Source: Planctomycetota bacterium
GTDB lineage: Bacteria > Planctomycetota > UBA11346
Assembly (NCBI GenBank): GCA_038213805.1
Contig: JBBQSO010000016.1
Location: 1-64,000, forward strand
Direction of reading: 5' to 3'
DNA length: 64,000 bases
In this document: in pieces, positions 17,577-63,200 of the stretch
Position numbering within the stretch: position 1 is the stretch's first letter
Layout of the letters: each line of letters begins with the position of its first letter
Translations under genes and position numbers: made by a program
The notes under the pieces: generated by a model
Seen by the model: only the letters and a program-made list of their open reading frames with translations
Told to the model about the DNA's origin: nothing
Databases searched by the model: none

Positions 17577-17834
17577 CGCCGTAGGTGCAGATTGCGCGCC
17601 ATTTGCGGCGTTGCCACAGGCAGGACTCTGGCTCCCGGCACGCTCACTGGCCCCTACCAATCATCCGTTCCACTGATCCTCCATGACGATCCCCCGCTGC
17701 GGGATTCCAAGGAGCAGGAATCCACCGGGACGACCAGCGAAGCAGAGGCAGCGATCACGAGCCGCAGCGGAGCGTCATGCGGGGCTGCCACTCTCCTTCC
17801 TTCCCTTCCCACCTCTTTGCGATCACATACCGGG

Positions 17835-34250: not shown

Positions 34251-35609
34251 ATGCAGCACCCCGACCTGCGCCTGCCGCCGCCGCTGCGCCCCTGCGGCCC
34301 AGGCCGTGGTGCCTTCACGCTCGTCGAGATGCTGGTGGTGGTGTCGATCATGTCGATCATCGCCGCGCTCGCCTTCGGCTCGCTGTTCGGCACCGTCAGC
34401 CACAATCGCCTGCTTGCCACCGAACATCTGATCGCCGATTCGGTGCGCCAAGCGCGGCACACGGCGCGCTCGACCGGGCAGCCGGCGGTGCTGACGATCA
34501 CGCCAGTTATGGATGATGCAGTGCCGCCGAAGGTGGTCGGCGGGCGGATCGCGGGGACGAGCAGGATTTGCGTGTGGAGTGAGACGTTCGACGAGGCGGT
34601 ACTGCCCACGCTGGGCGCTGCTGGTGACGGTACGCCGCTGCCGGCGATCCAGGATCCCGGCAACAGCGATGGCGCCGCCGTGGTAGTCGGCCGAACCGGC
34701 AAGGGCATGGTGGCGAGCGCCTTCCCCATGCCGCAGACGACCTTGGCCGGCCGCCTCATCAGCCAGGACCTAGAAAGGTCCGACCAGATCGTGCGCGGAT
34801 CGCGCACCGACGGCTTCTACCTCACCTGCAACGTCAAGCCGCCGTCGGCGCGCACCGCCGGGACCGTCAGCATCCCACTGCTGATGATCGGCGACACCCT
34901 CGATGCGGACAGCAGCCAGTGCGGGATCAGTCTGACCAACACGGTCAACAACCTGACTGCCGCCATCCCGCAATACAGCTGGGAACTCGACGGCTGGGTG
35001 ACCGGCGCGAGCGGCGCACCGGTCCACCTGCTCTCTCTCGATCCAACCACGCGGATCGTCAGCCAGGTCCCGGTGCCCTTCGCGGACATCGCCGACCCGA
35101 TCGCCGGCGGCGAGTGGATCGAGGTTGGCTTGCTCTACACGAACAGCGGGGGCGGCAGCGGCGGTCATCTCACCCTGTTCGTCGACGGCCGACCCATCGC
35201 TGAGATGCCGCAGGCCTCCGCCCCGACGGCGCCGACCGTCCCGCTCACCCTGCGCAGCGGCGCCACCGTGCATGTCGGTCATGCGACCCTCGACCCCATG
35301 GTTCCCGACCAGCGCAGCGCTGCCGCCATCGACGACGCCTGCCTCTACCGGGTCGGCACCGACCAGGTGGGCAATCTGCCTGGCGGCGTGATCGCCACGG
35401 GCACCACCGCCCAAGGAGCCCAGATCGTGGCCATGCCCGACGGCCGCGTGCAGGTCCAGCGCCAGGGCGCCACCAGCGCGGGTACCGCCGGCGCCAGCGC
35501 ACTGACCTTCGAGGAGTTGCACGCCCCGCAGCAGACGCACGTCGAGATCGCCATCGACGCGCGCGGCGTGGTGTCGAGCAAGTACGTGGTCCCGGGAGCG
35601 CCGCCATGA
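34251..35609 (+). CDS. Prepilin-type N-terminal cleavage/methylation protein (GspH/FimT-like) with LamG-like domain
   Basis: RGA|FTLVEMLVVVSIMSII; ARHTARSTG; WIEVGLLY..LTLFVDG..VHVG..AIDDACLY. Confidence 0.85.
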   Translation: MQHPDLRLPPPLRPCGPGRGAFTLVEMLVVVSIMSIIAALAFGSLFGTVSHNRLLATEHLIADSVRQARHTARSTGQPAVLTITPVMDDAVPPKVVGGRIAGTSRICVWSETFDEAVLPTLGAAGDGTPLPAIQDPGNSDGAAVVVGRTGKGMVASAFPMPQTTLAGRLISQDLERSDQIVRGSRTDGFYLTCNVKPPSARTAGTVSIPLLMIGDTLDADSSQCGISLTNTVNNLTAAIPQYSWELDGWVTGASGAPVHLLSLDPTTRIVSQVPVPFADIADPIAGGEWIEVGLLYTNSGGGSGGHLTLFVDGRPIAEMPQASAPTAPTVPLTLRSGATVHVGHATLDPMVPDQRSAAAIDDACLYRVGTDQVGNLPGGVIATGTTAQGAQIVAMPDGRVQVQRQGATSAGTAGASALTFEELHAPQQTHVEIAIDARGVVSSKYVVPGAPP

Positions 35610-38600
35610 TTCCCGCCCGCAGATCGCCGCGCTCCGGCGCCGCTTTGATCATCGCCCTCGTCATTCTCGCAGCGCTGATGCTGCTCGGCCTGCCGTTCAT
35701 CTTCAGCCAGTCCGGCGCACTCGCCGGCACGCGCTCGTTCGCACGTGGACAGACCGCGCAGGTTGGGATGGGCGCGGCCGAGAATTCGGGGATCGGCCTG
35801 GCCGGCAATGCGTCCGCACGGCACCTGCTCGCCGGCGTGAGCGTCGGTTTGACCAAGGATCAGGAGTGGAGCCGCATCGACTGGGACCTGGACACCCTCT
35901 ACGCCGCCGGGGTCGGCTCGGTGAATCCGATCCGCTGGTCGTACTTCGACGGGCGCCGCTATCAGATCGACTGGCTGAGCACGCCGCTCGCGTCCGCCGC
36001 CCCGCTGCCCGACCAGCTCCGCCGCGATCTGCTGGGACTGACCATCGAGGACGAGGGCGGGAAGCTCGACCCAAACCACTTGGACGCCGCGGGCTGGCAG
36101 CGACTGCTCGCTGCGCCAACCGTCGGCATCGCCGATCCCAACGATCCGGCCGACCATGACACGTACGGCCAACTCGCCAAGGCGCTCGCCAACCTGCGCT
36201 TCACACTGCCGGGTGGTCGCATCACCGATCTCGACCAGCTGCTCGCCGCCGTCCCGTCGGGCACCGGACGTCAGCACCTGACCAAGGCTGAGCTCGCCCA
36301 CGTGCGTCCGCACCTCACCCTGTCCAGCCTCGCGCAGGCGCGGGCCGGGCTGATCGATCTCGGCACGGTGGTGCTGGTGGACGCCCCACCGCTAACCGCG
36401 ACGGTCGTGCCCTACCTGGACAGCGTGGCGCCGTCAAAGCAGCTCGCCTTCCCGGTGACCCCCGACCTGATCGGCGCTGGAACTGTGCTGGTCTCGCAGG
36501 TCGGCACCGCGACCGCGCAGCCCAGCCGCCTGACCAGCGGGGACCTGGCTTCGAACATCACCGTCACCGCGCCCAACACCGTGGTCCTGACGCCCCTGGC
36601 CGCCAACGCCGCGCTCGCCATCGAGGCGCCGCCGGCGGTGAACATCCACGAGGCGACGACGACCACGCTCGCCACCCTGCGGCTCGTACCCATCTCGATG
36701 CCCGCACTGACCATGCCGCTCCCGGCGATGGCCTTGGACACGGTCGGCACGCTGCACAGCGTCATCGCCCAGGTCGATGCGCGAGCGGGGACGGGACCGC
36801 AGCTGTCCGCATTTGATCTGCTCGATCCGCTGGCCGACTACGACGAGATCACCACGGGAACGCTCAGCCAAAGCACTATTGGCGACGGTGTCACGCCCGC
36901 GAACGACACCGATGGCACGCCGCTGGTCGTTCAGGGCGCCATCTACTTGCACGTGCAGGGCGCTGACTTCGCCCGTGTGCCGCGCACCGGCTACGCGCGT
37001 GTCCACGGCACCTACGCCGGTAGCCACCTGCCGGCGATCGGAGGAAATCCTGCGACGCCTGCGCAGACGGGACCGGACGAGTTCATCTCCTATTCGCTCT
37101 CGCCCACCACCGCGGCCGCCACTGACCTCACTGACGTCAGCATCGTGGCATTGCGCCCGGGCGTGGCGGCGGTCTCGACGAATTTCCGCGTGGAACCGGG
37201 GAATCCTCCGGTCATCACCTTCATCTCGCCCCACGAGCAGGCGCCGGTCGCGATCGCCTCAGCCGGTGTCGTGACCATCGACAGCTCCGCGACCGTGACC
37301 GACGCCCAAGGCAAGCCCGACGCCAAACGCGGCCGGCGCATCGTGGCCCAGGCGGTCCCGCAGGAGGCGCCGCTGGAAACGCGCTGGACCACCCAGAGCC
37401 AGATCCAGGCGCTGCTCGCCAGCCGCCAGGGCAGCCTGATGACGTCCTTCCCGGTTGCGGTGCAGCGGGTCACCGACCTGACCACCAGCGACGTGGCGAT
37501 CGCGCCCACTGGCGAACTGCAGACCAGCGTCGGGCCGCCGGTGGTCGGTGAGGACCAGCTTACCGGGCTCAAGCCCGCGATCCTGCCCGCTCCGCATGGC
37601 AGCCAGCTGGACCTGCTCTGGTCGCGCACCTTTGCGGGCACCACCAACAACCCCAGCGTGAACGCGTTCTGGCAGAACGGCCTCTCACCTGGATTGCCCG
37701 CGAAGAATCCGCTGCAGACGCTTGACCACGTGATGTCGCCGGAAGGCCTGCGCATGGGCATCGGCGACAGCGCCCTGGCCTATCCGAATCCGCTCGGCAC
37801 CAACGGCTTCATCCCCTTCGGCAATGAACCGAGCTCCGGCAGCGTGTCGACGGTGGCGCCGTTCCACTTCGCCATCTGGATCAAGCCGACGATTCCCTTG
37901 AGTGGCGTGGTCACGGTCTTCGACCTGCGCATGCCTGCGGCGAGTGCTGGGTTGCCGCTGTTCGTAGCGCCCTTCGATGCCCCAGTTGCCGACTTCCCCT
38001 CGCGGCCGAGCATTGATGTGCAGAACCGCGTCTCGCTGCGCTACCTCGCCGACCTGAAACAATTCTCGCTGCTGGTCAACAACGGCGCGATCGAGCACAC
38101 CACCGATCACGGGCCGAAGATCCTGGCCGACGATTTCACCGAGCCTTTCTACGATCCGCAGAGCGGGCCCACCTCGGCCAGCGCCGATGCCCAGGCCTTG
38201 GCGCCCGGGCGGGGCAACCAGACCATCAAGCTGCGCTATGCGATGGGCGCCAATGGGCTGCAGCCCAATGTCTGGCATCTGGTGCAAGGTGTGATCTGCG
38301 GAAATCTGCCGGGGGGCATGGCGTTGATGGTCGATGGCGTGGTCGGACGGGAAGCGATCCTGGAATCGCCGGTCGACCTCAGCGCCATGGGCGACCACAT
38401 CACGCTGCCGAGCATGCGGCTGCTGACCGCGCTCCCTCTGAAGACCACCGCGGCGGTTCAGTCGAACGCGAAGAACGCGCTGCTGGCGGGTGATATCGAT
38501 CTCGATGCGTGCACCTCCGCCCTCACCCCCAGCGGCGGCCTCGACCATGGCGGTGCCGCGGTCCACGACCTGCTGCCGGCGCGGGGCATGATCCGCATCG

Positions 38601-41098
38601 GGCAGGAGTTCATCAGCTATTCGGGCATGACCGTGGCAGCGGATCGCGCTACGCTCCACCACTGCCTGCGCGCGCGCCGGCAGAACACCGATGGCGACGG
38701 CATGGGTGGGGCGCCCCTGACCGATCCGTGGCCGGTGACGCAAGCGCACGCGGTCGGCGATCTGGTTGTGCCGGGGGGGTACCGCATCTCACCACCTGCA
38801 GGTCCGCCGCGGCAGCTGTATCGTGGGGGATGCGCACTGTCGGTGGGGACACTAGCCAAGAACAGCACGGCGACGCCGCCGATCCCTTTCCCACAGGGAC
38901 CCGCTGCGTCGAATTACCAGCTATTGGCGCAAGTTGACGGTGCAGCCAACGATACCGTTGTCTCGCTTGTGGCACCGACAGCGACGCTGACTGCCCGGGG
39001 ATCGCAACTGCCCAACTGGCCGGGGCGTGGGGTGATTTGGGTAGACGCGACGAATGGCAACCCGCAGTACCTGTTCTACAACGCGCTGACACTGTCGGGC
39101 GACGGGACCAGCGGGGTGTTCAGCGGCCTGCACCGCTTGGCGATTGGCGGCACTCCGGCGGGCACGCCGGCCCAGCCATTTGCCCTCTCGAACATCAATG
39201 CCTTCACCATCCTGCTGGTCAGTCTGGAGGTGACCGGCGACCCGACCGAGGCCGGCCGATACAAGCCCAACGGCGAGTGTCTCTTCCAACTCTACGATCC
39301 CGCGGGCGATGGGCGCGCCGAGTGGATCACCTACACCGACACGGTGTTCATCACGCCGGACCTGCTCGATCCGTCGGTGCCAGCACCCGCCACTGGCGTC
39401 GGCTTCTTCATCGATCGCTACAACGGCTTCAAATACGACGTCACCAATCCGACCGCCACCACCTCCAGCCGCGGTCGCGAACGAACCCGCAACCCCGATT
39501 CGGCGCAGCCGCCACTGCCGACCGATTTCGCGGCTGGCACCCTGGTCCTGCCGGTCCAGACCGAAATCAACACGGCCGGCTCCTTGATCACCACCGGCGA
39601 CATCCTCACCATCGCTCCACGCCAACCGACGCCCGCAAGCAAGCCGCTTCAAGTATGCGTGCGCTACGCGCCGGCCGATGGCTTCTCGGGCACGGCCGAC
39701 AGCGTCGTCGACACCCACAACCACTACTTCGCCTTCACCACAACCCTGCCCGACGGCAACACCTGGAACTGCAACACCACCGCCACGGCATTCGACCTGC
39801 TCTGCTGGCCCTGCTGGAACTCCGAACTGGATCTCAGCCCGTACCTGCCGGTCGGCGGCGACAACACCCTGCTGCCGTTGACCCAGATGCCGTGGGCGAA
39901 GAGCCTGCAGACCGGTTTCGCCACGCCCGGCGACGCGCGCGTCTACTTCGGCGTCCTCGACGACCGCGCCTATCCGACCGATGCGCAGTTCCCCGGGCTG
40001 ATCGACATGCCGCAGTCCGGGCCCATGCCCCCGATCCGCATGCTGACCTCGACCAGCGTACCCGGAACCATCTGGCTGACAAAGACCGACAGCATTTCGC
40101 AACTCAATGGCATCAAAATCAACTACCCCAATGCCACATTCCCGCAGAAGCATGGGCTGGTGATGATTGGCGACGAAGTCTTCGCTTTCGAGCGCATTGA
40201 CAATCCCCCGGTGGCAATTCCACCCGCGACGCAAGATCTACCGCAAATGACAGCCAAACTCATCGGCCGCTCCCTGCTCGGCAGCAAAGCCGTCGACCAC
40301 AGTCTTTACGAAAAGATGGTCTTCCTGCCCATCGGTCCGGTCACGGAACTTGCCACCCCCATGCCGATCGGCGCAACCGGCCACGTCACCTTCCGCCTGA
40401 ACGACCGCATCGACGCGCCCGCCTTTCTGATCTGCAGCCCGGATGGCCAGGAGATGGAACTGGTCGCACTGCCGCAAATGGTTACGGCGCCGTGGCTGCG
40501 CGGGATGTACGGGACCATGCCGCACAACTGGCCGACCTCGGCCGGGACACCGCTGGTGATCGCCTGGTGGCCCCGCTATCCGAGCGCCTTCCCGCATCCG
40601 ACGGGGCTGACAGCGCTCGGCCTTCTGCCAGACCTGCAGTCCAGCCTGCTCCGCTCCCGCTCCTACGCCTGGGCTTCGTTCCCGGTTCGCTTCCACGATA
40701 CCTACTTCATTGATGCGGACCCCTTCACCATCGACTTCCCGCCCCGGCCGCCGAATTCCAATGTGACCATCAGCTATGCTGCCATGAGCAATGGCATGGC
40801 CTGGGACTTCTCGACGTTCAAGAGTCCATACGCCGGCACGCCCAGCGCGAACACGATTCCCATATCGTCGGGACAATTATTCAGCGCCACACCCTTCACC
40901 AGCGGAGGACATCCGTCGCCCGTCGACGGCGCCGAGATCCGCGTGATCTGGCAATACGCGACGCCCCCTTACATCGGCACCGACGCAGTCGCATTCCTTG
41001 AACAGGCCGCTGCCAACGCCAATCAAGCGCCAATGTTCGGTTCGGCCAAGGTCGTCGTGCGCGCGCCGAGCAAGGTCCTGGCGGTCGTGCCACCGTGA
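35606..41098 (+). CDS. Giant (1830 aa) GspK/PilX-like minor pseudopilin/adhesin with LamG-like domain
   Basis: RSG|AALIIALVILAAL (no Glu5), IEDEGGKLDPN, AVNIHEA; FAIWIKP/WHLVQ/LMVDG LamG-like motifs; ATGA coupling to the upstream gene. Confidence 0.75.
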   Translation: MIPARRSPRSGAALIIALVILAALMLLGLPFIFSQSGALAGTRSFARGQTAQVGMGAAENSGIGLAGNASARHLLAGVSVGLTKDQEWSRIDWDLDTLYAAGVGSVNPIRWSYFDGRRYQIDWLSTPLASAAPLPDQLRRDLLGLTIEDEGGKLDPNHLDAAGWQRLLAAPTVGIADPNDPADHDTYGQLAKALANLRFTLPGGRITDLDQLLAAVPSGTGRQHLTKAELAHVRPHLTLSSLAQARAGLIDLGTVVLVDAPPLTATVVPYLDSVAPSKQLAFPVTPDLIGAGTVLVSQVGTATAQPSRLTSGDLASNITVTAPNTVVLTPLAANAALAIEAPPAVNIHEATTTTLATLRLVPISMPALTMPLPAMALDTVGTLHSVIAQVDARAGTGPQLSAFDLLDPLADYDEITTGTLSQSTIGDGVTPANDTDGTPLVVQGAIYLHVQGADFARVPRTGYARVHGTYAGSHLPAIGGNPATPAQTGPDEFISYSLSPTTAAATDLTDVSIVALRPGVAAVSTNFRVEPGNPPVITFISPHEQAPVAIASAGVVTIDSSATVTDAQGKPDAKRGRRIVAQAVPQEAPLETRWTTQSQIQALLASRQGSLMTSFPVAVQRVTDLTTSDVAIAPTGELQTSVGPPVVGEDQLTGLKPAILPAPHGSQLDLLWSRTFAGTTNNPSVNAFWQNGLSPGLPAKNPLQTLDHVMSPEGLRMGIGDSALAYPNPLGTNGFIPFGNEPSSGSVSTVAPFHFAIWIKPTIPLSGVVTVFDLRMPAASAGLPLFVAPFDAPVADFPSRPSIDVQNRVSLRYLADLKQFSLLVNNGAIEHTTDHGPKILADDFTEPFYDPQSGPTSASADAQALAPGRGNQTIKLRYAMGANGLQPNVWHLVQGVICGNLPGGMALMVDGVVGREAILESPVDLSAMGDHITLPSMRLLTALPLKTTAAVQSNAKNALLAGDIDLDACTSALTPSGGLDHGGAAVHDLLPARGMIRIGQEFISYSGMTVAADRATLHHCLRARRQNTDGDGMGGAPLTDPWPVTQAHAVGDLVVPGGYRISPPAGPPRQLYRGGCALSVGTLAKNSTATPPIPFPQGPAASNYQLLAQVDGAANDTVVSLVAPTATLTARGSQLPNWPGRGVIWVDATNGNPQYLFYNALTLSGDGTSGVFSGLHRLAIGGTPAGTPAQPFALSNINAFTILLVSLEVTGDPTEAGRYKPNGECLFQLYDPAGDGRAEWITYTDTVFITPDLLDPSVPAPATGVGFFIDRYNGFKYDVTNPTATTSSRGRERTRNPDSAQPPLPTDFAAGTLVLPVQTEINTAGSLITTGDILTIAPRQPTPASKPLQVCVRYAPADGFSGTADSVVDTHNHYFAFTTTLPDGNTWNCNTTATAFDLLCWPCWNSELDLSPYLPVGGDNTLLPLTQMPWAKSLQTGFATPGDARVYFGVLDDRAYPTDAQFPGLIDMPQSGPMPPIRMLTSTSVPGTIWLTKTDSISQLNGIKINYPNATFPQKHGLVMIGDEVFAFERIDNPPVAIPPATQDLPQMTAKLIGRSLLGSKAVDHSLYEKMVFLPIGPVTELATPMPIGATGHVTFRLNDRIDAPAFLICSPDGQEMELVALPQMVTAPWLRGMYGTMPHNWPTSAGTPLVIAWWPRYPSAFPHPTGLTALGLLPDLQSSLLRSRSYAWASFPVRFHDTYFIDADPFTIDFPPRPPNSNVTISYAAMSNGMAWDFSTFKSPYAGTPSANTIPISSGQLFSATPFTSGGHPSPVDGAEIRVIWQYATPPYIGTDAVAFLEQAAANANQAPMFGSAKVVVRAPSKVLAVVPP

Positions 41099-51889: not shown

Positions 51890-53038
51890 CTACTGCTCGA
51901 CGCGGTAGACCTTCCCTTCCTTCCAACCACTGCCCTCGAAGGTGGTGAGGTAGACCTCGCCATCGAGGTCCTCGCCGAACGACGTGATGTTCTTGCCGGG
52001 CTGGGCGAGCTGGTGGTTTTCGACCTGGTCGCCACTGCGCTTGAGACCCCAGATGCGCGTCGACTGGAAGTCGGCGTAGATGTAGACGCCTTCGAGCGCG
52101 GTGAAACGCTTGCCGCGGTACACGCAGCCGCCGGTGATCGACTGGCCGACGTCGTGCTTGTACTCCCAGATCGGCTCGATGGCGCCGGGGACGGGCGGCT
52201 TGTTCTCGAAGGCGTGGTGCGCCTCGTGGTGGTTCCAGCCGTAGTTGCCACCCTTGGTGACGATGTCGACCTCCTCCCAGATGTTCTGGCCGACGTCGCC
52301 CAGCCACAGCTCGCCGGTCTTGCGGTCGAAGCTCATGCGCCAGGGATTGCGCACTCCGTACGCGTAGATCTCGGGGAAGACCCCGGCCTTGCCGACGAAG
52401 GGGTTGTCCTTGGGGATGCCGTAGGGCTTGCCGTCCGCGGGATGGTCGGGGTCGATGCGCAGGATCTTGGCCAGGAAGGTGTCCATCTTCTGGCCATTGG
52501 CGTGCGGGTCGCCGCCGGCGCCGCCATCGCCCTTGCTGAGGTAGAGGAAGCCGTCCTTGCCAAACGCCACGGTGCCGCCGTTGTGGTTGTCGTAGGGGTT
52601 CTCGACCTGGATCAGGATCTCTTCGCTGGCGGGATCGGCGTGCAGGTGGTCGGCCGTCGCCTTCATGCGCGACAGGGTGTTCTTCTTCGATCCGGCGGCG
52701 GTGTAATAGATGAAGAAGACGCCGTTGGTCTTGAAGTCGGGGTGGAAGGCGAATGACAGCAGGCCCTGTTCGTTGCTGGCGCTGTTGGTCTTGGCGGTCC
52801 AATCGAGGAATACGGTCTTGTCGGCATCGTCAGCGGCGAAGGTGACGAGGTGGCCGTGCTGTTCGAGCACCACGTAGCGCGCCGTGCCGTCGGCCAGCTG
52901 GGTGAAGCCGACCGGGCGGTCGAAGGCAAGCTTGGGGAAGGCCGGGACCAGCTTGATGGCGTCGGCCGCGGTGAGCGGGGCGAAGCCGGCGCAGGCGGCG
53001 ACCAGGGCGGCGGCGAGCGGGCGGAGGACGTGGCGCAT
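51890..53038 (-). CDS. PQQ-dependent sugar dehydrogenase family (GSDH beta-propeller)
   Basis: EQGLLSFAFHPDF, NHNGG, GDGG, YGVRNPWR, GDVGQ, GGNYGW and SFGED motifs; signal peptide. Confidence 0.92.
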   Translation of the reverse strand: MRHVLRPLAAALVAACAGFAPLTAADAIKLVPAFPKLAFDRPVGFTQLADGTARYVVLEQHGHLVTFAADDADKTVFLDWTAKTNSASNEQGLLSFAFHPDFKTNGVFFIYYTAAGSKKNTLSRMKATADHLHADPASEEILIQVENPYDNHNGGTVAFGKDGFLYLSKGDGGAGGDPHANGQKMDTFLAKILRIDPDHPADGKPYGIPKDNPFVGKAGVFPEIYAYGVRNPWRMSFDRKTGELWLGDVGQNIWEEVDIVTKGGNYGWNHHEAHHAFENKPPVPGAIEPIWEYKHDVGQSITGGCVYRGKRFTALEGVYIYADFQSTRIWGLKRSGDQVENHQLAQPGKNITSFGEDLDGEVYLTTFEGSGWKEGKVYRVEQ

Positions 53039-53171
53039 CGGGTGGGCTCCAGGTGGGAAACGCTAGCTGGGTCTACGCTCGGCACCAGTCCAGCGTTGTC
53101 GGGGCGACGGGCGCTGGACACGCGCCAGCCCCACCCCAGCGTAGCGCCATGCCCGCCCCCGGTGACCCTCG

Positions 53172-54716
53172 ATGACTGGCGCCTTCCGGCCCTGGGACTG
53201 GGCGGTGTTCGCTGGTTATTTCGCCTTCCTGGTCGGCACCGGCGTGCTGCTGGCGCGGCGGCCCGGCGACGCCAAGGACTACTTCATCGGGCACCGCCAG
53301 ATGCCCTCTTGGGCGGTGGCGGTGTCGGTGTTGGCCTCGGCGTTGTCGGTGGCGACCTATCTGGGGGCGCCGCAGGAGGCATACGCGGGCGATCTGACTT
53401 ACCTGCTCGCCAACGTCGGCACCATGCTCGCCGTGGTGGTAGTGGCCTATGCCTTCATCCCGGCTTTCTACCGCCACGAGGTGGTGACGGTCTACCAGCT
53501 GCTGGGCGTGCGTTTCGGACCGCGCGCCGCGCAGGCGGCGAGCTGGACTTTCCTGGTCGGGCGCGCCCTGGCGAGCGGTGCGCGGCTGTTCATGGCGGCG
53601 ATCCCGGCGGGCATGATCCTGACCGGGGACGGCGACGCTGTCGCGCCGGTGGTGGCCGGGATTCTGATCCTGACCGCGATCGGCATCGCCTACACCCTGG
53701 TCGGCGGCATCAGCAGCATCATCTGGACCGACGTCATCCAATTCCTGATCATGATCGGTGCGGTGGTCGCCGCGTTGGTGCTGCTGTGGTCGCGCATCCC
53801 GGCGGCGCCCGCCGACATCTGGCACGCGCTGTCCGAGCCGCGCACGGACGGCCCCGGCAAGCTCGCGCTGGTGTCGCTGTCGCTGGACCCGACGCGGGCC
53901 AACACGCTGTGGACCGCCCTCGGCGGCTACCTGCTGCTCAACCTCGCGGTCTACGGCACCGACCAGGATCTGGCGCAGCGCATGCTCACGTGCCGCAATG
54001 CGGTAGCGGGGGGACGTGCGGCCCTCGCCGCGATCGTGATGAACATTCCGGTGGTGCTGCTGTTCCTGGGCCTGGGTCTGCTGCTGTGGGTGTTCTACCA
54101 GCGGCCGGATCTGATGGGCGGGGCGGTACCAGCCTACCCCGTCCCGGGAGGGCAGAAGGTTTTCCTCACCTTCATCCTGCACGAGATGCCGCAGGGCATG
54201 GCCGGACTGATGATGGCGGGGCTGTTCGCGATCGCGCTGACCAGTCTGCTGTCGGCGCTCAATGCCATGGCTTCGGCCTTCATCACCGACTGCTATCGTG
54301 GGGCGGCGCCCGGTCGCGATGAGCGCCATTACCTGACGGCCAGCCGCTGGGCGGTTGCGGGTGCCGGCGTGGTGGTCGCCCTGGTGGCGATCGGCTGCAT
54401 GGCCTGGGAGCGCCACAGCCACATGAACCTGCTGGCGCTCGCCTTCAGCGTCATGGTGCTGGCCTGTTCGGGGCTGCTCGGAGTGTTCCTGACGGCGCTG
54501 TTCACCCGGCGTGGCAATCAGACCAGCGCCATCGCTGCGCTGGTGATGGGCTTCGCGACCTGCGCAGCCCTGCAGTGGGCACCCTACGCGGAATTTTTCT
54601 GGCCGGGTGGTGGGCAGCTCGCCTGGCCGTGGATCATGGTGATCGGCACCGCGGCCGCCTTCGCCACCTGCTGCGCAGGCACCCCTTCCGCACGCACTCG
54701 TGAGACCAGACTGTGA
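53172..54716 (+). CDS. Sodium:solute symporter family transporter
   Basis: DYFIGHRQMPSW, YTLVGG..IIWTDVIQF and YGTDQDLAQR motifs; many TM segments. Confidence 0.92.
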   Translation: MTGAFRPWDWAVFAGYFAFLVGTGVLLARRPGDAKDYFIGHRQMPSWAVAVSVLASALSVATYLGAPQEAYAGDLTYLLANVGTMLAVVVVAYAFIPAFYRHEVVTVYQLLGVRFGPRAAQAASWTFLVGRALASGARLFMAAIPAGMILTGDGDAVAPVVAGILILTAIGIAYTLVGGISSIIWTDVIQFLIMIGAVVAALVLLWSRIPAAPADIWHALSEPRTDGPGKLALVSLSLDPTRANTLWTALGGYLLLNLAVYGTDQDLAQRMLTCRNAVAGGRAALAAIVMNIPVVLLFLGLGLLLWVFYQRPDLMGGAVPAYPVPGGQKVFLTFILHEMPQGMAGLMMAGLFAIALTSLLSALNAMASAFITDCYRGAAPGRDERHYLTASRWAVAGAGVVVALVAIGCMAWERHSHMNLLALAFSVMVLACSGLLGVFLTALFTRRGNQTSAIAALVMGFATCAALQWAPYAEFFWPGGGQLAWPWIMVIGTAAAFATCCAGTPSARTRETRL

Positions 54717-56617
54717 ACGACCTCCAGCATCTGCCGCCTCTGCTGCTGCCGGCTCCGCGCCTGCTCGTCGACTCCCGCGACAGCGCCGGCTGGCTGACCG
54801 TGCCGGCGACGGTGCGCATCAACGGGTACCCGCCGTACATCGCGCTGGCCACGGCGATCCTCGCCGACCACCTCCACCTGGCAGAGTCCACCCTCGCCGA
54901 CTTCGGGCCGCTGTGCGTCGACGGGGATCCGCCCGAGCCCGCGCTCAGCGGCGGCGAGGCCTACCGCCTGCGCATCGACGCGCGGCGCATCCACCTCGCT
55001 GCGCACAGCGAGGCCGGCATGCGTCATGGGCTGCGTACGCTGGCGCAACTGATCATCCAGTACGGCCGCCGCCGCCTGCCGTGCGTGCTGATCGAAGATG
55101 CACCGGTATTCGCGGTGCGCGGCGTGATGCTGGACGTCAGCCGCGACCGCGTGCCGACCATGGCGCACCTGCTCGAGACCGTCGATCAGCTCGCCAGGTG
55201 GAAGATCAACCACCTCCAGCTTTATACTGAGCACACCTTCGCCTACGCTGGCCACGAGGAGGTGTGGCGTGGCGCCTCGCCGTTGACCGCGGATGAGATG
55301 CTCACCCTCGACGTGCACTGCCGCGCGCACGGCATCGAGTTGGCCGCGAACCAGAACTGCTTCGGCCACCTGGCCGCGTGGCTGAAGCATCCGCGCTACG
55401 CGCCGCTGGGTGAGATCGCCCCGGACGCGGAGTGGGACTTCAACGGTCTGGTGATGCGACGCGGTCCGTTCAGCCTGTGCCCGAGTGACCCGCGCGCGCT
55501 GGCGCTGGTCGAGGATCTGCTCGACCAGCTGCTGCCGACCGTCGCTGGGCCGCTGGTGAACATCGGTTGCGACGAGACCTTCGACGTCGGGCAGGGCCGT
55601 TCCAAGGACGCCGTCGCCAGCCGCGGGCGCGCTGCCGTCTATCTGGAATTCGTGCGCGCGATCTGCGCCGTGGTGCGCCGCCACGGCAAGCGCCCGATGT
55701 TCTGGGCCGACATCGCGCTGGAACACCCCGAGGCGCTCGCCGAGCTGCCCGCGGACCTCATCGGCCTGGCCTGGGGCTATGAGCCCGATGCGCCCTTCGC
55801 ACGCTGGTGCCAGCAGCTGCGTGCGGCCGGGCGCGAGGTGTGGGTATGCCCCGGCACCTCGTGCTGGCGCGCGATCACCGGCCGCACCCGCGAGCGGCGC
55901 GCCAATCTGCTCGCCGCCGCGCGTGACGGCGCGGCGCACGGCGCGACCGGCTATCTCGCTACCGCCTGGGGTGACGTCGGCCACCGTCAGCAATGGCCGA
56001 TCACCCTGCACGCCCTCGCCGAAGCAGCGCACCGCGCGTGGAGCGGCAGTGCGGAGTACGATGTCCGCGCCGGGTCGCTGCACGCTTTTTCCGACCGTAC
56101 CCTGATGGTCGGCGCCTGGCTCGACGAGCTCGGCGATGTCGACGCCGGCCTGCGCGCCATCGCCGGCAAGCCGCAGGCCGACGGCCAGCCCCGCGCGCTG
56201 CGCAACGCCAGCGCGCTCTTCACCGACACCCAGAAGCCGCTCGCGGAACCCTGGAAGGGCTCGCGCGGCGACTGGGAAGAGGTCGCCGAGCGCCTCGAGG
56301 GCCTGGCCGCACGCCAGCCCCAGCTGCCCTCGAACCTGCACAACCAGGAGCTGCTGTTCTCCTGCCTCGATGCCAGCTTCGCCGCAACCCGCGCCTTCCT
56401 GCGGCGCTTCTCGCAACCGGTGATGATGGAAGGACTGCTGCCCGAGCTGCGCCTGTTCGCCGAGGCCGACCTGCCCCTCTACCGTTACCTGTGGCGCCAA
56501 CGTTCCCGTCCCGGCGGCCTGGCCGCGAGCTGCGCGCATTACCGCGCCCTGCTCACCGAACTCGGCCCGCTCGACGAGCTCGACCTGCTCGATGCGGTGG
56601 ACGACCCGGCGAGCTGA
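54713..56617 (+). CDS. Glycoside hydrolase family 20 (beta-N-acetylhexosaminidase-like), no signal peptide
   Basis: EAYRLRI, HGLRTLAQL, IEDAP, RGVMLDVSR, NHLQLY, NIGCDE and PMFWAD motifs; GTGA overlap with the symporter. Confidence 0.88.
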   Translation: MNDLQHLPPLLLPAPRLLVDSRDSAGWLTVPATVRINGYPPYIALATAILADHLHLAESTLADFGPLCVDGDPPEPALSGGEAYRLRIDARRIHLAAHSEAGMRHGLRTLAQLIIQYGRRRLPCVLIEDAPVFAVRGVMLDVSRDRVPTMAHLLETVDQLARWKINHLQLYTEHTFAYAGHEEVWRGASPLTADEMLTLDVHCRAHGIELAANQNCFGHLAAWLKHPRYAPLGEIAPDAEWDFNGLVMRRGPFSLCPSDPRALALVEDLLDQLLPTVAGPLVNIGCDETFDVGQGRSKDAVASRGRAAVYLEFVRAICAVVRRHGKRPMFWADIALEHPEALAELPADLIGLAWGYEPDAPFARWCQQLRAAGREVWVCPGTSCWRAITGRTRERRANLLAAARDGAAHGATGYLATAWGDVGHRQQWPITLHALAEAAHRAWSGSAEYDVRAGSLHAFSDRTLMVGAWLDELGDVDAGLRAIAGKPQADGQPRALRNASALFTDTQKPLAEPWKGSRGDWEEVAERLEGLAARQPQLPSNLHNQELLFSCLDASFAATRAFLRRFSQPVMMEGLLPELRLFAEADLPLYRYLWRQRSRPGGLAASCAHYRALLTELGPLDELDLLDAVDDPAS

Positions 56618-56640
56618 CCCCCTCCCACCGGGATCCCACC

Positions 56641-56686
56641 TTCGAGCTTCGAGCTTCGAGTCTCGCAGCTCGCAGCTCGCAACTCG
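56641..56686. repeat. Heptamer tandem repeats (TTCGAGC)x3 then (CTCGCAG)x3
   Basis: Read directly from the GH20-anmK intergenic region. Confidence 0.75.
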
Positions 56687-56854
56687 GCGCTGACGCCTCG
56701 CTTCCAGACTCTCGCGCCGAGCGGCCCCAGCCTCGCGCCTGGCTCTTCGCGCCGCGCGCGACCCCACAAACGCCCATTCCCCCCGCACAATCCCCCCCTA
56801 AGCCTTCCCCCCACGCCACCGCGCGGCCTGCGCCCCGGCCTGCCCAGGAATCCC

Positions 56855-58024
56855 ATGCCCCGCGCCTCGTTCACCCAGCTCTCGAAGCCGTCCGACACAT
56901 TCGACCGCGCCAACCCCGAGCATGCCCGCCAGACCCGTTCCGCACGCCGCCACCACGGCACGCGCTACGTCGTCGGCTGCATGACCGGCACCAGCATCGA
57001 CGCGCTCGACGGCGCCCTGGTGGCGATCGATGGCACCGGGATGGAGATGCGCCTTGAGCTGCTCGGCCAGGTGACGTGGCCGCTCGGCGCCCTGGCCGAG
57101 CCGCTGCGCCGTCTCGCCAACCAGGAACCGATGAGCGCACGCGACATCGCCACCCTGGCCCGCGACTTCGCCCTGCTGCACTGCGACGCCATCGACGAGC
57201 TGAAGGGGCGCAGCGAGCTGAGCCTGATCGCGGTGCACGGGCAGACCGTGTTCCATGCCCCGCCGGTGAGCTGGCAGCTGTTCAATCCCGCGCCGCTGGC
57301 GGCGCGCTTCAAAGTGCCGGTGGTCTCTGATCTGCGCGGCGCCGATCTCGCCGCCGGCGGCGAGGGCGCGCCGATCACGCCGCTCGCCGACTATCTGATC
57401 TTCCGCCACCCGCGCGAGCGCCGCACCATCGTCAACCTCGGCGGCTTCTGCAACATCACCCGCCTGCCCGCAGGCGAGGGCCTCAGCGGCCTGACCGGCG
57501 CGGATATCTGCGCCTGCAACCAGGTGCTTGATGCAATCGCGCGGCGCGTGCTGGACTGTTCCTACGACCGCGATGGGCAGCGCGCGCTGGCGGGCACCGC
57601 CAAGACCCGGCCCGCGGCGGCGCTCGCGACCATGCTTGAGGCGCAGGCCAAGTCCAAGCGCAGCCTGGGCACCGGCGATGAGCTCGGCGCGTGGATCGAC
57701 AAGCACCAGGTGCTGTCGCCCGAAGATCTCGCGCGCACCGCTTGCGCGGCCATCGCCCAGATCATCGTCCGCCACATCGGCCAGGCCGACCGCATCATCC
57801 TGGCCGGCGGCGGCATCCGCAACCGCGCCCTGCTCACCGAGCTCAGGAACCAGACGCACATCCCGCTCATCATCAGCGACGAGGCCAATGTGCCCGCCTC
57901 GCTGCGCGAGGCCATGGCCATCGCCGTGCTCGGCGCGCTCTGCCAGGACCGCGTCCCGATCACCATCCCGCGCATCACCGGGGTCGAGCGGGCGCCGGTG
58001 GCGGGGATGTGGGTGCTGCCTTAA
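56855..58024 (+). CDS. anmK: Anhydro-N-acetylmuramic acid kinase
   Basis: GCMTGTSIDALD, HGQT, DLAAGGEGAP, NLGGFCN and GGGIRN motifs. Confidence 0.93.
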   Translation: MPRASFTQLSKPSDTFDRANPEHARQTRSARRHHGTRYVVGCMTGTSIDALDGALVAIDGTGMEMRLELLGQVTWPLGALAEPLRRLANQEPMSARDIATLARDFALLHCDAIDELKGRSELSLIAVHGQTVFHAPPVSWQLFNPAPLAARFKVPVVSDLRGADLAAGGEGAPITPLADYLIFRHPRERRTIVNLGGFCNITRLPAGEGLSGLTGADICACNQVLDAIARRVLDCSYDRDGQRALAGTAKTRPAAALATMLEAQAKSKRSLGTGDELGAWIDKHQVLSPEDLARTACAAIAQIIVRHIGQADRIILAGGGIRNRALLTELRNQTHIPLIISDEANVPASLREAMAIAVLGALCQDRVPITIPRITGVERAPVAGMWVLP

Positions 58025-58033
58025 AACAGGAGG

Positions 58034-58183
58034 CCCTAGACCCTAGACCCTAGACCCTAGACCCTAGACCCTAGACCCTAGGTAGTGGCTCGGGAGTCTT
58101 TGACTGAGATCATAGGTCCACCTCATTTTCGCACAGCGATCTTCGCAAAACGATCTAGGGTCTAGGGCATAGGTTCTGGGCCC
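58034..58183. repeat. Inverted heptamer-repeat element: (CCCTAGA)x6-7 ... (TCTAGGG)x2-4
   Basis: Six perfect units at 58034-58075; reverse-complement units from 58154. Confidence 0.92.
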
Positions 58184-58232
58184 TCAGAGTCGCGCAGGCG
58201 ATGGACGAACCCCTCAAGCCGCCGATCATGGG

Positions 58233-59150
58233 ATGTCCATGGAACTCCCCCCCGACCGCTCCCACATCCTGACCGAGGCCCGCAATACGGGCAGCACCGG
58301 ACTGCACCGGTTGTCGGCGGCGGAGTGCGTGCGGCTGATGAACCGCGAGAACGCGGCGGTGCTGGCGGCGATGGAGCAGGCCGAGGCCGCTCTGACAGCG
58401 TTCATCACCGCCGCGGAGCCGGGCTTCATCGCCGGCGGGCGGCTGATCTACCTGGGCGCGGGCACCTCGGGACGGCTCGGCGTGCTCGACGCGTCAGAGG
58501 CGCCACCGACCTTCCAGGTCGAACCGGGGCGCGTGGTCGGAATCATCGCTGGCGGCGACGCGTCGCTGCGCCGTTCCAGCGAGAGCCGCGAGGACGAGAT
58601 CCAGGGCGCGTGGGACGAGCTCACTGCGCTACACCTGGGCCGCCACGACACGGTCATCGGCATCGCGGCCGGTGGCACCACGCCGTATGCACTCGGCGCC
58701 CTGACCTTCGCCAAGACTCAGGCTGCAGAGGCGCCGCTGACCGCCTTCATCTCTTGCACGCCGGTAGTGCGTCCGGAGCACGCCGACCATCTCATCGTGC
58801 TGGCCAGTGGTCCCGAGGTGCTGACCGGTTCGACCCGGCTCAAGGCGGGGACGGTCACCAAGCTCGCGCTCAACACCATCTCGACCACGCTGATGGTGCG
58901 CGCCGGCAAGGCCTACGGCAACCTGATGGTCGATGTGCGCGCGACCAACGCCAAGCTGCGCGACCGCGCCGCGCGCATCGTCGCCGAACTGACCGGTCGC
59001 GACCGCGCCGCCGCCTTCGCCCTGCTCGACGCCGCCGGCGGGACCGTGAAGACAGCGGTGGTCATGGCCCGCTGCGCCCTCGACCGTCCCAGCGCCGAAG
59101 CCCGCCTCGCCGCCCACGCCGGCCGGCTCGATCGCGTGCTGGACGGCTGA
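58233..59150 (+). CDS. murQ: N-acetylmuramic acid 6-phosphate etherase
   Basis: TEARN, GAGTSGRLGVLDASE, GPEVLTGSTRLKAGT and GNLMVDV motifs; start may be 58239. Confidence 0.96.
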   Translation: MSMELPPDRSHILTEARNTGSTGLHRLSAAECVRLMNRENAAVLAAMEQAEAALTAFITAAEPGFIAGGRLIYLGAGTSGRLGVLDASEAPPTFQVEPGRVVGIIAGGDASLRRSSESREDEIQGAWDELTALHLGRHDTVIGIAAGGTTPYALGALTFAKTQAAEAPLTAFISCTPVVRPEHADHLIVLASGPEVLTGSTRLKAGTVTKLALNTISTTLMVRAGKAYGNLMVDVRATNAKLRDRAARIVAELTGRDRAAAFALLDAAGGTVKTAVVMARCALDRPSAEARLAAHAGRLDRVLDG

Positions 59151-59384
59151 TTCCGGGGGTCGCTACCCGACGCGGCAGCGTTGCCCGCGCGTCTTGCCAA
59201 ACGCATGGTCCCAGGGCCGCACCGGGTCGTCTCCCGTCATGCCCGTCGCCTCAGCCCGCTGGCAACTCGCCTGTCGCGACTCGCCGGCTGTACCTCGTGC
59301 CTCCTCCACGCGCCCCCGCCGCCCCGACCCGCCCTTGGACGGGCACCGGGCCACAGTTACGCTCGCCAGCCCCTGGGAGCCCGC

Positions 59385-60119
59385 ATGCAGCGCCTCATCC
59401 CCGCCTTCACCCTGTTCGCGATCGTCACCGGCGGTGCCGTGACGGCCACCGCCGCAGAGGACCTGCCGAGCATCCACGACCTGTTCGTGGGCGTGCTGGT
59501 GACGCCCGTCCCGAAGATCCACGAAGAGACCCATGACAGCGCCAATACGGCGATCGCCACCGACTGGCGCGACCAGGACAGCAACGGTTTCGGCGTCAGC
59601 GTGGTCAGTCTCAATTGCAGCATGACCCATGACTGGGGCGGCATCATGTGGGGCGGCGAACTGGTCACCACCAAGGCGGACATCACCGCCGGCACGCTGC
59701 TGGAATCCGGCAGTCTGCCCGCCTACCGCAACCCGTCGACCGAACGCATGCAGTATCAGACCCTGGGCGCCAATCTGCTGGTCGGATACGAATATGGAAT
59801 CGCGGCGCTGGAGGAGGACGAGTTCGGCGGCTGGGTCGAGGTCCTCGCGGTGCTCGGTGGCGGCGGCGTGCGCGCGGACTCCGAAGACCGCTTGAACCAC
59901 ACCGTCGTGCAGCGTAAGGGCGGCAACGGCGTTTATTACAACTACGGTCTGCGCGTCGCCGGTTTCCTCACCGAGCGGCGCTGGATCTTCGGCGCCTCGG
60001 TCGAGTGGCTGGCCGGCACCGCGCAAGTCGACATCGACTACGGCGGCGCGGCGAGCACGAAGATGACCATCGATCAGAACGGGCTGGGATTCGCGTTCCT
60101 GGCGGGCTACCGGTTCTGA
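59385..60119 (+). CDS. Putative outer-membrane beta-barrel protein
   Basis: GGAG RBS, signal peptide, amphipathic strands, C-terminal FLAGYRF. Confidence 0.75.
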   Translation: MQRLIPAFTLFAIVTGGAVTATAAEDLPSIHDLFVGVLVTPVPKIHEETHDSANTAIATDWRDQDSNGFGVSVVSLNCSMTHDWGGIMWGGELVTTKADITAGTLLESGSLPAYRNPSTERMQYQTLGANLLVGYEYGIAALEEDEFGGWVEVLAVLGGGGVRADSEDRLNHTVVQRKGGNGVYYNYGLRVAGFLTERRWIFGASVEWLAGTAQVDIDYGGAASTKMTIDQNGLGFAFLAGYRF

Positions 60120-60210
60120 GGGACGGGGCCCGCGTGGGTCAGGCTGACCGGACAGCAGGCGCCGAACTCGCGCCCATCCGAAGCCCGCGGCACGGCGGGC
60201 CGGTTCTGGA

Positions 60211-63200
60211 CTAGACCTTCCGCGTGGGCGGCGTCGGAGCCGGCATCGCGCTGCCCGCCGCCGCGCGGATGCGCTCGCACAGCGCCACCACCGCCTGGCG
60301 CTGCGCCGGCAGGTCGGCGCCCAGGCCGAGGTCGGGGAAGTCGGCCAGCATGCGCTCGCATTCCTCACCAAGGCGCGAGCGCGCGGGGCCCCCGATGCGC
60401 GTCACCAGCACGCGGTGCTCGAGGAGGCGCGTGCGCGCCTCGGCGATGGCGTCGCGTTCAGCGGCCACGCGCTTGCCGACTTCAAGCAGGCCGCCACGCA
60501 GGCGACCCTCCGCGAAACCGGCGCCGCTGGGCGCGCCGCGCGCCAGGCCGGCGGGATCGCCGAGCGCCAGCAGGCACTCCTCGAGCACGCCGCCCAGCTC
60601 GCGCACCTGCCCGGCGCAACCCAGGGCCAGGACCAGGCGGGCGGCATCGGCTGGCACGGCGTCGTCCCATACCGCGAGCAGCCCGGCGCAACGGTCGGCG
60701 GCGCGCTTGGTGTCCTGTGGCTTGGTCGCAGCGAGATCGAGGCGGCGGGACAGCGCATCGAGGTAGACATCGGCGCGGCGCAGTGCGTGCCAGGGCAGGC
60801 GCGCCGGCAGGTCGGGCGCGGACAGCCGCGCCACCTGCTCGGCGGCGCTGGCGATCGCCGCCGCCGCGGCCAACGATTTGGCGCCTTGCTTGAGGCGCGC
60901 GCGCAGCGGCTCGGCGCGTGCGCAGATGCGCTCGAGCAGGGCATCGATCTCGCCGCCCGCCGCGACAAGGGCGACCTGGGCGCGTTCCTGTAGGTCGACG
61001 AAGGCCGCCGCGTCGCGGATGCGACCGCGTTCGACGCTGCGCAGCACGCTCAGCGCGCAGGCCCTGCGCAGCGCCCCGCAGCGCGCACCGAACAGGCGCT
61101 CGACGCGCGTGGTCAGCACCAGCGGTGCCGGGGCCAGCGCGAGTGCGGACAGCTCCCCATCGCAGGCCGCCTCGAGCAGCGCGTCCAGGCCGTCATCGTG
61201 CCAGGCCTGCGCGGCAAGGGCGCTGGCGAAGACCGTGCGTCGCGCCGCCACCAGCCCGCGCTCGTCGCGGCAGCGCATCAGCGCGACGTGGCCGGTCACG
61301 CCGCCGGCCGCGACCTCGCCCGGGCAGTCGCCGGGCCAGACGGTGGCCGGCGGCGTCTCCCACAGGCCGCGCAACACGCGCAGGCGATCGCCGGCAGCGG
61401 CGGCCTGAGCAGCGAGGAATTCCGGATCGCGGCCCTCGTAGGCGAGGGTGCCATCGACGCCGCGGATGCGAAAACGCAGGCGCAAATGCGCGGGCAAGGC
61501 CCCGGCCATGAACGGCGGGCAGGGCTGGCCGAGCCGTTCGCGCACCAGTTCGCCGAGCAGCTGCGGCAGACCGCGGCGGGTGGCCGAGTCAGGCAGGGCG
61601 AGGCAGCGCGCGGTCAGGTCGCGGGCGCTGTCGGCGAGCGGGATCAGGCGCCGTCGCAGGTCCTTCGGCAGCTGGCCGAGATACGCCTCGATGGTCTCGG
61701 GCAGCGCACCCGGCACCAGCCAGTCGAGGCGGCCCTGGTCGACCAGCGCGAGCTGGTCCTCACGCAGCTCGAGGGTCGCGCCGTCGTCGGTGTCACCGGG
61801 CACGAAGCGGTAGCGCAGCCCCAGGCGCTGGCCGCCCATCGCGATCTCCTCTGGGAAACCGGCCGCGGCGCGCGCCACCGCCTCGGGGTCGGCGAGGTCG
61901 GCCGCGGCTATTACCAGGCGGTCTTCACCGTGCGTGCGGAACCAGCGGCGCAGCGCGTCGCTGGAGGCGATCACCGGCGGATCGGCGGTGTCCAGGCCGA
62001 GCCGTTCGCGGTAGAATGCCGCGATTTGCGCGTCATCGATCCACAGCGTCGGATCGCGCAGGCGGTCGCGCAGGCGGCGCGCATCGGCCAGAACCGCGCG
62101 GTTGCGCGCGATGACGGGGAACTCGCCGTCAAGGTGCTCGCCACACAGGCCCTCATGCACGAACACCGCGGTCGCGTCCCGCGCATCGATGCGCTCGTAC
62201 GGCACCATGCGCCCGCTTCGCACCGGCAGGCCCTTCCAGGTGACGGTCTCGGTGCACACCACTTGGCGGCGCTTGACGTGCCAGTGCGGATCGCGGTGGC
62301 GGCGGCGCACCCGGTCCCCGGCGAGCTCGACCACCCATTCCGGATCGATGGGCGCGCACAGCCGCGCGAACAGCCGGCTGGTCTCGACCACCTCGCAGGC
62401 GACCAGCCACGGCGGTGGCGGCGGCGCGCGCTTGCCATCGTCGACCTTCCCGGCGCGCAGCGCGCTGCCGGGATGGACGTGCAACTGGCGGTCGCCGGCG
62501 CCGCGGAAGACGCGCTGCTCGGGATCGTACATCAGCACGTTGCCGAGCATGCCGGCGAGCACCGCGCGGTGCACGCGGTCCAGCGGCCACGCCTCGGCCG
62601 GGTGGCCTGTCGGCGGCACGACCGCGCCCTTGGCCTGGCCCGCGCCCGCGGGGCCCGCGCGGCGCTCGCGGATGGCCTGCCACAGCTGGTGGCGCACGTC
62701 CGCCCACTCGCGCATGCGGCGGAAGCCGATGAAGCCCGACTCGCAGAAGCGCTTGCGTGCGGATGCCGAGGCCGCTTCCTGGTAACGGTCCCACAGGCGC
62801 AGCACGGTGGCCAGGTCGCCCGCCTCGTGCGCCATGGCCTTGTGCGCGCTGTCGGCCTTGGACTCGGAGCCGAGCGGCCGCACGCGCGGATCCTGCACCG
62901 ACAGGAAGGCCGCGATGGTGCAGGCCTCGTGCGGCACGCCCTCGGAAAGCCCGGCGAGCAGGATGCGCGCGACCTGGGGGTCGGCGGGGATCGACGCGAG
63001 TTGACGCCCCATGTGGGACAGCGCGGACTGCTGGTCGCGAGGCGCGGAGTGCGGAGTGCGGAGTGCGGAGTGCCGGTCTCCTGGCGCGGTGGCCGCTGCG
63101 CTGGCGTCGCCAGGCGTGCGTTGAGAATCAACCTGCTGCTGGTCGGAGTCCGTGGGGACAGGCCGCCGCTTCGACGCAGGCACCTGCGCATTCCGCACTC

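Follow-up and report, generated by a model that had tools for sequence, protein, structure and literature searches.

A candidate salvage cluster for peptidoglycan sugars in Planctomycetota, with a sodium:solute symporter and a GH20 glycosidase beside AnmK and MurQ

Four genes that may form a cytoplasmic salvage route for peptidoglycan sugars are located within a 64,000-nt stretch (G+C about 69%) of contig JBBQSO010000016.1, from a Planctomycetota bacterium (assembly GCA_038213805.1). This whole stretch is referred to here as the window. The genes encode, in order, a sodium:solute symporter of the SSS family (SLC5-type; 514 aa; positions 53172-54716; PF00474), a three-domain GH20 beta-N-acetylhexosaminidase (634 aa; 54713-56617; PF00728 and PF02838), an AnmK family kinase (389 aa; 56855-58024; PF03702) and the N-acetylmuramic acid (MurNAc) 6-phosphate etherase MurQ (305 aa; 58233-59150; TIGR00274). 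An earlier note, made from the same DNA, had described four co-directional genes in a probable planctomycete. Every open reading frame (ORF) was found at the coordinates given there, on the + strand, with agreeing family matches. A related locus (L001), from a metagenome-assembled genome titled as Planctomycetota, was 92.4% identical at the DNA level across 2724 nt, in keeping with the planctomycete label.

On the sequence data, we put at about 0.5 the probability that the cluster serves to salvage, in the cytoplasm, the sugar moieties of peptidoglycan fragments produced by lytic transglycosylases. The broader claim, that it acts on peptidoglycan sugars, is very probable. In the proposed route, the Na+-coupled symporter would take a fragment through the inner membrane, a step that the permease AmpG would perform in six variant loci. 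The imported fragment would most likely be N-acetylglucosamine (GlcNAc)-1,6-anhydroMurNAc, and less likely 1,6-anhydroMurNAc (anhMurNAc) alone. The GH20, which has no signal peptide, would clip off the non-reducing GlcNAc and release anhMurNAc. AnmK would then open the anhydro ring and phosphorylate the sugar to MurNAc-6-phosphate, and MurQ would convert this to GlcNAc-6-phosphate and D-lactate. We infer the substrates and activities of all four proteins from their sequences. Such a route may serve either to recycle the cell's own wall or to scavenge the walls of other cells, and the data do not separate the two.

The proposed route resembles the AmpG-NagZ-AnmK-MurQ route of Escherichia coli in its AnmK and MurQ families and in the succession of its steps, namely import of an anhydromuropeptide, cleavage of GlcNAc in the cytoplasm, phosphorylation and removal of lactate. 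It differs in the two entry proteins, since the window transporter belongs to the LeuT-fold SSS family and not to the major facilitator superfamily (MFS), and the window glycosidase belongs to GH20 and not to GH3. The recycling genes of E. coli are scattered, whereas those in the window are clustered.

Conserved linkage and the transporter slot

A word-indexed protein search with the GH20 sequence recovered 3482 relatives among 8000 scored candidates, and the named relatives were annotated as "family 20 glycosylhydrolase" of Planctomycetes or Phycisphaerae. Two peptide patterns derived from a 25-sequence alignment were scanned over species-representative genomes, and 534 stretches were found to encode this GH20 subfamily. 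The best 80 of these 534 stretches, together with flanks of at most 10 kb, were searched by tblastn with the four proteins of the window, and only loci with enough flanking sequence were counted. According to the record titles, 68 of the 80 loci are from Planctomycetota (36 Phycisphaerae and 4 Brocadiia) and 4 from Calditrichota, with the rest from others.

Conservation of the neighbourhood, a check that the earlier note had proposed, proved strongly positive, so that an unconserved linkage, which the note had listed among its grounds for refutation, does not apply. AnmK was encoded directly 3' of the GH20 gene in 54 of 66 loci, and at distances of 705 and 1273 nt in two more. MurQ was encoded on the same strand, no more than 4.5 kb 3' of the GH20 gene, in 39 of 60 loci, and the symporter directly 5' on the same strand in 32 of 68. 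The complete set of four genes was present in 23 of the 55 loci with both flanks, and the GH20 gene stood alone in nine. All four genes were also carried by L046, a locus labelled Calditrichota. Because the arrangement recurs in dozens of species-level genomes from both Planctomycetota and Calditrichota, it is beyond what chance would produce.

In the window, the TGA stop codon of the symporter gene shares 4 nt with the GTG start codon of the GH20 gene (GTGA, 54713-54716, + strand, from the ORF coordinates), which agrees with the translational coupling claimed in the earlier note. A start/stop overlap between the two genes was found in 22 of 34 symporter-type loci, and measured 4 nt in 14 and 8 nt in 8 of the 34.

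In six loci (L002, L003, L017, L019, L026 and L066), an AmpG-family MFS permease was encoded directly 5' of the GH20 gene in divergent orientation, and the symporter was absent from that position. The L026 permease matched TIGR00901 with 308.9 bits (E 4.5e-92; cut-off 350) and also matched the equivalog models of the E. coli AmpG type, and the permeases of the other five loci were 33-42% identical to it (tblastn E 9e-61 to 8.5e-44). These six loci thus add a further likeness to the E. coli route, in that a true AmpG-family permease is paired with the same GH20. The symporter and AmpG were never found together within 10 kb on either side of the GH20 gene in the 80 loci, and the two types of locus have outer neighbours in common, which encode a GSDH-type dehydrogenase, AhpC and a Na+/H+ exchanger.

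A quick maximum-likelihood tree was built from 77 GH20 sequences, after removal of two fragmentary ones (L001 and L028) and of two others interrupted by a stop codon within the matched region (L004 and L044). The six AmpG-type loci all fell within a single clade of 19 rows (Shimodaira-Hasegawa-like approximate likelihood ratio test, SH-aLRT, 96), to which the window, L008 and L009, all of the symporter type, also belong. The symporter type was represented in every major GH20 clade, and a shuffle control on the tree indicated that the symporter label is clustered by descent. The stable GH20-AnmK pair and the alternation of SSS and AmpG proteins beside it together indicate that the transporter slot has switched between the two families. 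Of the evidence gathered here, this switching argues most strongly that the GH20 would act on AmpG-type cargo and that the symporter would have a related import role.

The same data bear on the reading that the symporter is unrelated to the three enzymes, in which its cargo would be a monocarboxylate (D-lactate from the MurQ reaction, for example) or an unrelated solute, and it would adjoin them through inherited synteny. Clustering of the symporter label by descent is consistent with that reading, as are the absence of a symporter beside the GH20 gene in about half of the loci and the presence of a monocarboxylate transporter (7sl9, E 2e-30) among the symporter's relatives in the PDB. The overlap with the GH20 gene recurs, however, in loci of distant clades, symporter-linked loci are found in all the major GH20 clades, and the four genes are kept together in the Calditrichota-labelled locus. 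We consider an unrelated symporter highly improbable.

No AmpG was found in the 64-kb window, either by Pfam scans or by tblastn with the AmpG-like protein of L026. Likewise, no GH3 NagZ was found in the window or within 10 kb on either side in the 80 loci, where the best tblastn match to E. coli NagZ had an E value of 0.085. The earlier note had placed the symporter and the GH20 "in place of AmpG and NagZ". An AmpG-family permease at the same slot in six loci is what non-orthologous displacement would be expected to leave, and this part of the claim is strengthened; the absence of the two genes was seen only within the 64-kb window and, for NagZ, also around the 80 loci.

The glycosidase, the kinase and the etherase

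The GH20 protein matched PF00728 with 43.9 bits (cut-off 22.3), with residues 133-355 aligned to positions 1-240 of the 348 in the profile, and its N-terminal GH20b domain matched PF02838 with 40.7 bits (cut-off 26.1). The catalytic motif reads N283-I-G-C-D287-E288-T, and N283, I284, C286, D287 and E288 were invariant in 25 of 25 aligned sequences. The GCDE motif claimed in the earlier note thus has an intact and invariant D287-E288 pair. The GH20 motif is quoted as (H/N)-x-G-(A/C/G/M)-D-E-(A/I/L/V) in a passage of PMC13436218, and the T at the last position of the window motif lies outside the quoted A/I/L/V set.

A cytoplasmic location is predicted for the GH20. The GTG start codon has an in-frame stop three codons to its 5' side, so a longer N-terminus or a hidden signal peptide is impossible, in agreement with the earlier statement that the protein has no signal peptide. 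The first conserved strand of the protein (consensus PLLLPxPR) begins 5-48 nt past the symporter stop codon in 29 of 32 evaluable symporter-type loci, and by our own reading of the printout an in-frame stop lies no more than 17 codons before this strand in 22 of 81 GH20 sequences.

By sequence the GH20 is distant from characterised enzymes, with a best PDB match at E 5.3e-12. An AlphaFold model of the protein (predicted local distance difference test, pLDDT, 90.4; predicted template modelling score, pTM, 0.93) gave as its top fold matches GH20C of Streptococcus pneumoniae (5a6k) and GcnA of Streptococcus gordonii (2epo), with a template modelling (TM) score of 0.70 over the full length and E values down to 2.7e-27. 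The remaining GH20 structures reached a TM score of about 0.55 at most. As modelled, the GH20 is a protein of the three-domain GcnA type, with a GH20b domain, a TIM barrel and a C-terminal helical domain. GcnA and GH20C are intracellular. They share the full-length three-domain fold with the window GH20 and differ from it in sequence (15-16% identity, with neither among the sequence matches at E <=0.01), in gene context and in presumed substrate.

The GH20 protein has no GH3 match in Pfam and is not a member of the NagZ family. It is a candidate functional analogue of NagZ, and probably does the NagZ step. For a predicted exo-hexosaminidase of the cytoplasm whose gene is coupled to that of a transporter and precedes anmK, the substrate that fits best would be GlcNAc-1,6-anhydroMurNAc. 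A GH20 that cleaves this compound is described in a 2026 paper (PMC13436218), according to which NagX of Stenotrophomonas maltophilia strips GlcNAc from GlcNAc-anhMurNAc, with or without attached peptides. By that description NagX has the same (H/N)xG(A/C/G/M)DE motif; it differs from the window GH20 in being periplasmic, in acting before import by AmpNG and in coexisting with NagZ, whereas the window GH20 has no signal peptide and is encoded in linkage with AnmK and MurQ.

Alternatively, the symporter and the GH20 could be an uptake and cleavage pair for another N-acetylhexosamine glycoside, for example chitobiose or a fragment of a glycan, with anmK and murQ merely part of a general amino-sugar neighbourhood. 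The names of PDB entries show GH20s to be best known as chitobiases and glycan hexosaminidases, the entry titles of the closest folds, GcnA and GH20C, refer to action on GlcNAc or GalNAc glycosides, and the window GH20 is too divergent for its specificity to be read from homology. This alternative nonetheless appears improbable in light of the conserved GH20-AnmK adjacency, which extends across phyla, and of the identity of the replacing permease in the six variant loci, as AmpG is a muropeptide-specific family. Scans of the window and of the neighbour clusters that recur among the loci also revealed no chitinase, NagA or NagB.

The kinase matched PF03702 with 179.4 bits (cut-off 24; E 1.5e-52) and was nearer to solved AnmK proteins (3cqy, E 2.3e-30) than to levoglucosan kinase (E 5.8e-22). 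An identity as levoglucosan kinase was considered and was rejected in view of the better scores of the solved AnmK proteins and of the adjoining MurQ, which favours AnmK. MurQ matched TIGR00274 with 322.2 bits, above the equivalog cut-off of 302, and NF003915 with 343.1 bits (cut-off 168). With MurQ and a probable AnmK, the later steps of the pathway are set, and the use of MurQ makes the route a catabolic branch.

The symporter and its cargo

The symporter covered all of PF00474 (profile positions 1-406 of 406, E 4.1e-30) and matched TIGR00813 with 173.1 bits, slightly below the cut-off of 184. Among Pfam and NCBIfam models it matched those of the SSS family only, and the AmpG family models were unmatched. 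A language-model search for look-alikes returned generic SSF clusters only, and the nearest named ones were mostly from Bacteroidota.

The best solved relative of the symporter was the sialic-acid symporter SiaT of Proteus mirabilis (5nv9, E 4.7e-45, residues 9-495), whose substrate N-acetylneuraminic acid is, like MurNAc, an N-acetylated sugar acid. The two proteins were compared in a HMMER alignment, with positions counted by hand and residue roles taken from a part of PMC5931594. The Na2 site is retained in the symporter, with A55, L58, T357 and S358 opposite A56, L59, S342 and S343 of SiaT, and D187 stands opposite SiaT D182. The substrate-contacting S60 and T63 of SiaT correspond to S59 and T62, while SiaT T58 and Q82 are changed to A57 and N81, and the Na3 site is incomplete, with L360 opposite SiaT S345. 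Two arginines of the third transmembrane helix, R131 and R138, were invariant in 25 of 25 symporter orthologues and lie one helical turn on either side of the position of R135, the carboxylate-binding residue of SiaT. This residue pattern is compatible with an anionic sugar substrate and proves nothing. Sialic acid itself was considered as the principal substrate and was rejected, as no sialic-acid catabolic genes were found in the window and the key arginine is misaligned.

The symporter is a candidate importer of a sugar of the (anhydro)MurNAc type, an assignment that we somewhat favour. That the sugar it carries is a disaccharide is suggested more tentatively, at rather less than even odds. 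The most far-reaching version of the proposal would make the symporter an anhydromuropeptide permease of a new kind, the first SSS protein (LeuT-fold, Na+-driven) for which transport of a disaccharide, GlcNAc-anhMurNAc, is shown, and would have it fully replace AmpG and NagZ, together with the cytoplasmic GH20, in many Planctomycetota; this we regard as possible, on the unlikely side.

The nearest described system in organisation is the ampG-ybbC-murT-murK-murQ operon of Tannerella forsythia, as presented in passages of PMC5388701 and PMC5790795. There, a transporter that is neither a phosphotransferase system nor AmpG lies beside a sugar kinase and MurQ, and the glycosidase gene ybbC is in the operon. 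That operon is unlike the window cluster in its kinase, as MurK acts on MurNAc and AnmK is absent according to a part of PMC7670621, and in having YbbC in place of a GH20. MurT may also be likened to the window symporter by its description in PMC5790795, where one passage places it in the sodium symporter superfamily. The superfamily is stated inconsistently in the sections of that paper that deal with it, as a sodium symporter in the introduction and as a major facilitator in the discussion.

This system supplies the principal alternative to import of a disaccharide, in which the symporter would be a MurT-like importer of free anhMurNAc or MurNAc that adds to an AmpG encoded elsewhere, and the GH20 would cleave the disaccharides imported by AmpG. 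The known substrates of SSS proteins are small solutes, and SiaT, the symporter's closest solved relative, carries a monosaccharide acid. In T. forsythia, AmpG and MurT are encoded in one operon with MurK and MurQ (in a passage of PMC5388701), and MurT has been proposed as a reasonable carrier of anhMurNAc (in a passage of PMC7670621). The arrangement of the loci argues in the other direction. The symporter and AmpG share the same slot and the same neighbours and do not co-occur, the overlap couples the symporter to the glycosidase and not to the kinase, and a cytoplasmic glycosidase requires an imported glycoside. Import of a monosaccharide alongside a separate AmpG is thus judged unlikely.

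Several observations weigh against the proposed salvage route or against parts of it. An adjoining symporter was absent in 36 of the 68 loci with enough upstream flank, so that it is dispensable at this position, and no other transporter was detected by Pfam among 34 upstream ORFs from 20 loci without the symporter. (These 34 were the ORFs nearest the GH20 gene, out of 76 listed from 30 loci; the ten loci left out were mostly ones whose upstream genes had already been named.) The carboxylate-binding R135 of SiaT stands opposite A134 of the symporter in the HMMER alignment. The words disaccharide, MurNAc, muramic and MurT are absent from a 2021 review of prokaryotic SSS proteins, and as this review never mentions a disaccharide, such a substrate would be new for the family. 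The kinase scored below the cut-off of all 14 NCBIfam equivalog models for AnmK, the best being NF007148 (235.8 against 387 bits). Family scans of the window found no AmpD-type amidase, NagA or NagB; fragments that bear peptides would need enzymes encoded elsewhere.

The remaining points concern transcription. We infer that the four genes form a single operon, and the spacers of 237 nt between the GH20 gene and anmK and of 208 nt between anmK and murQ speak against this. A sigma-70 scan of positions 52600-60400 found no promoter-like sites, with a consensus that may not fit the promoters of the host, and the two terminator-like sites in the same interval were not above the level in shuffled sequence.

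Neighbouring genes and implications

Downstream of murQ, an ORF on the + strand (59181-60119) may be an accessory gene, and its membership of the cluster is uncertain. It had no Pfam or NCBIfam match, and relatives of it were found 3' of murQ in L005, L006, L007 and L009. In its translation, a hydrophobic leader comes after an internal Met, and the C-terminus reads ...GYRF. In our reading the product looks like a small outer-membrane beta-barrel, which might let the same substrates in across the outer membrane. An overlapping ORF on the minus strand (59163-60371) was treated as its shadow, since it had no family match and the GC content by codon position favoured 59181-60119. Shadows also accounted for many of the minus-strand neighbour clusters in an all-against-all comparison of ORFs, in which they mirrored the four core genes; clusters c15 and c24, which overlap BioF-like and trigger-factor genes, are probably shadows as well.

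Located 5' of the symporter gene, and divergent from it, is a gene of the GSDH-type family (pyrroloquinoline quinone-dependent glucose/sorbosone dehydrogenases; 51890-53038, minus strand). A member of this family also adjoins the transporter gene in L003, which is AmpG-type, and in L015, L016 and L020, which are symporter-type. An Opp/Dpp-like ATP-binding cassette importer, with a family-5 binding protein and permeases, is encoded 5' of the cluster in L021, L025, L062 and L080, with ATPases in L062. These genes are divergent from the symporter-GH20 pair or, in L062, lie directly 5' of the GH20 gene. The importer may take up the peptide part of muropeptides.

In one clade (L047, L053, L056, L063, L068, L070, L075 and L077), a ROK-family kinase is encoded on the minus strand about 3.4-4.7 kb 3' of the GH20 gene, accompanied by a BioF-like acyltransferase and trigger factor. 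This kinase weakly matched kinases of N-acetylmannosamine and of GlcNAc. It might phosphorylate GlcNAc set free by the GH20, or its position could simply be inherited synteny. We count the kinase and the Opp/Dpp-like importer in favour of the salvage route. A ThuA-like gene (PF06283) lies between anmK and murQ in the closely related loci L004-L007.

Elsewhere in the window, a 1288-codon ORF (14568-18434, + strand) had a family match only in its C-terminal part, to two lumazine-binding repeats at residues of about 1188-1272 that suggest riboflavin synthase; the long region N-terminal to them may reflect over-extension of the ORF in DNA of high GC content and not real protein. At 23335-25649 (+ strand), a short MFS-like membrane ORF, which is not AmpG-like, is followed with a start/stop overlap by a protein with a spermine/spermidine-synthase domain. 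At 34050-41098 (+ strand), the gene of a 519-aa protein that bears a prepilin-type N-terminal methylation motif is followed by that of an 1830-aa protein with no family match.

Peptidoglycan recycling is known mainly from proteobacteria, with some work in Firmicutes and Bacteroidetes, and a cell wall in planctomycetes was accepted only about a decade ago. A full-text literature search, with subscription journals mostly outside its scope, found no account of this cluster, nor of a route for peptidoglycan recycling or scavenging in Planctomycetota. Each half of the proposal appears to have a partial precedent, MurT for the transporter and the periplasmic NagX for the GH20. The earlier note thus implied more novelty than there is, given the descriptions of T. 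forsythia MurT in passages of PMC5790795 and of NagX in a passage of PMC13436218.

The cluster offers a concrete and testable route for Planctomycetota, and it appears to be widespread, to judge from the 534 stretches that encode the GH20 subfamily. If the symporter and the GH20 replace AmpG and NagZ, wall recycling or scavenging would proceed without an orthologue of either canonical entry protein. Should the assignments hold true, a second transporter superfamily would join muropeptide import, and GH20 enzymes would be able to take over the cytoplasmic NagZ step. Several hundred genes now called "sodium:solute symporter" or "family 20 glycosylhydrolase" could then be given a better annotation, and the route would bear on the use of bacterial necromass by abundant heterotrophs of waters and sediments.

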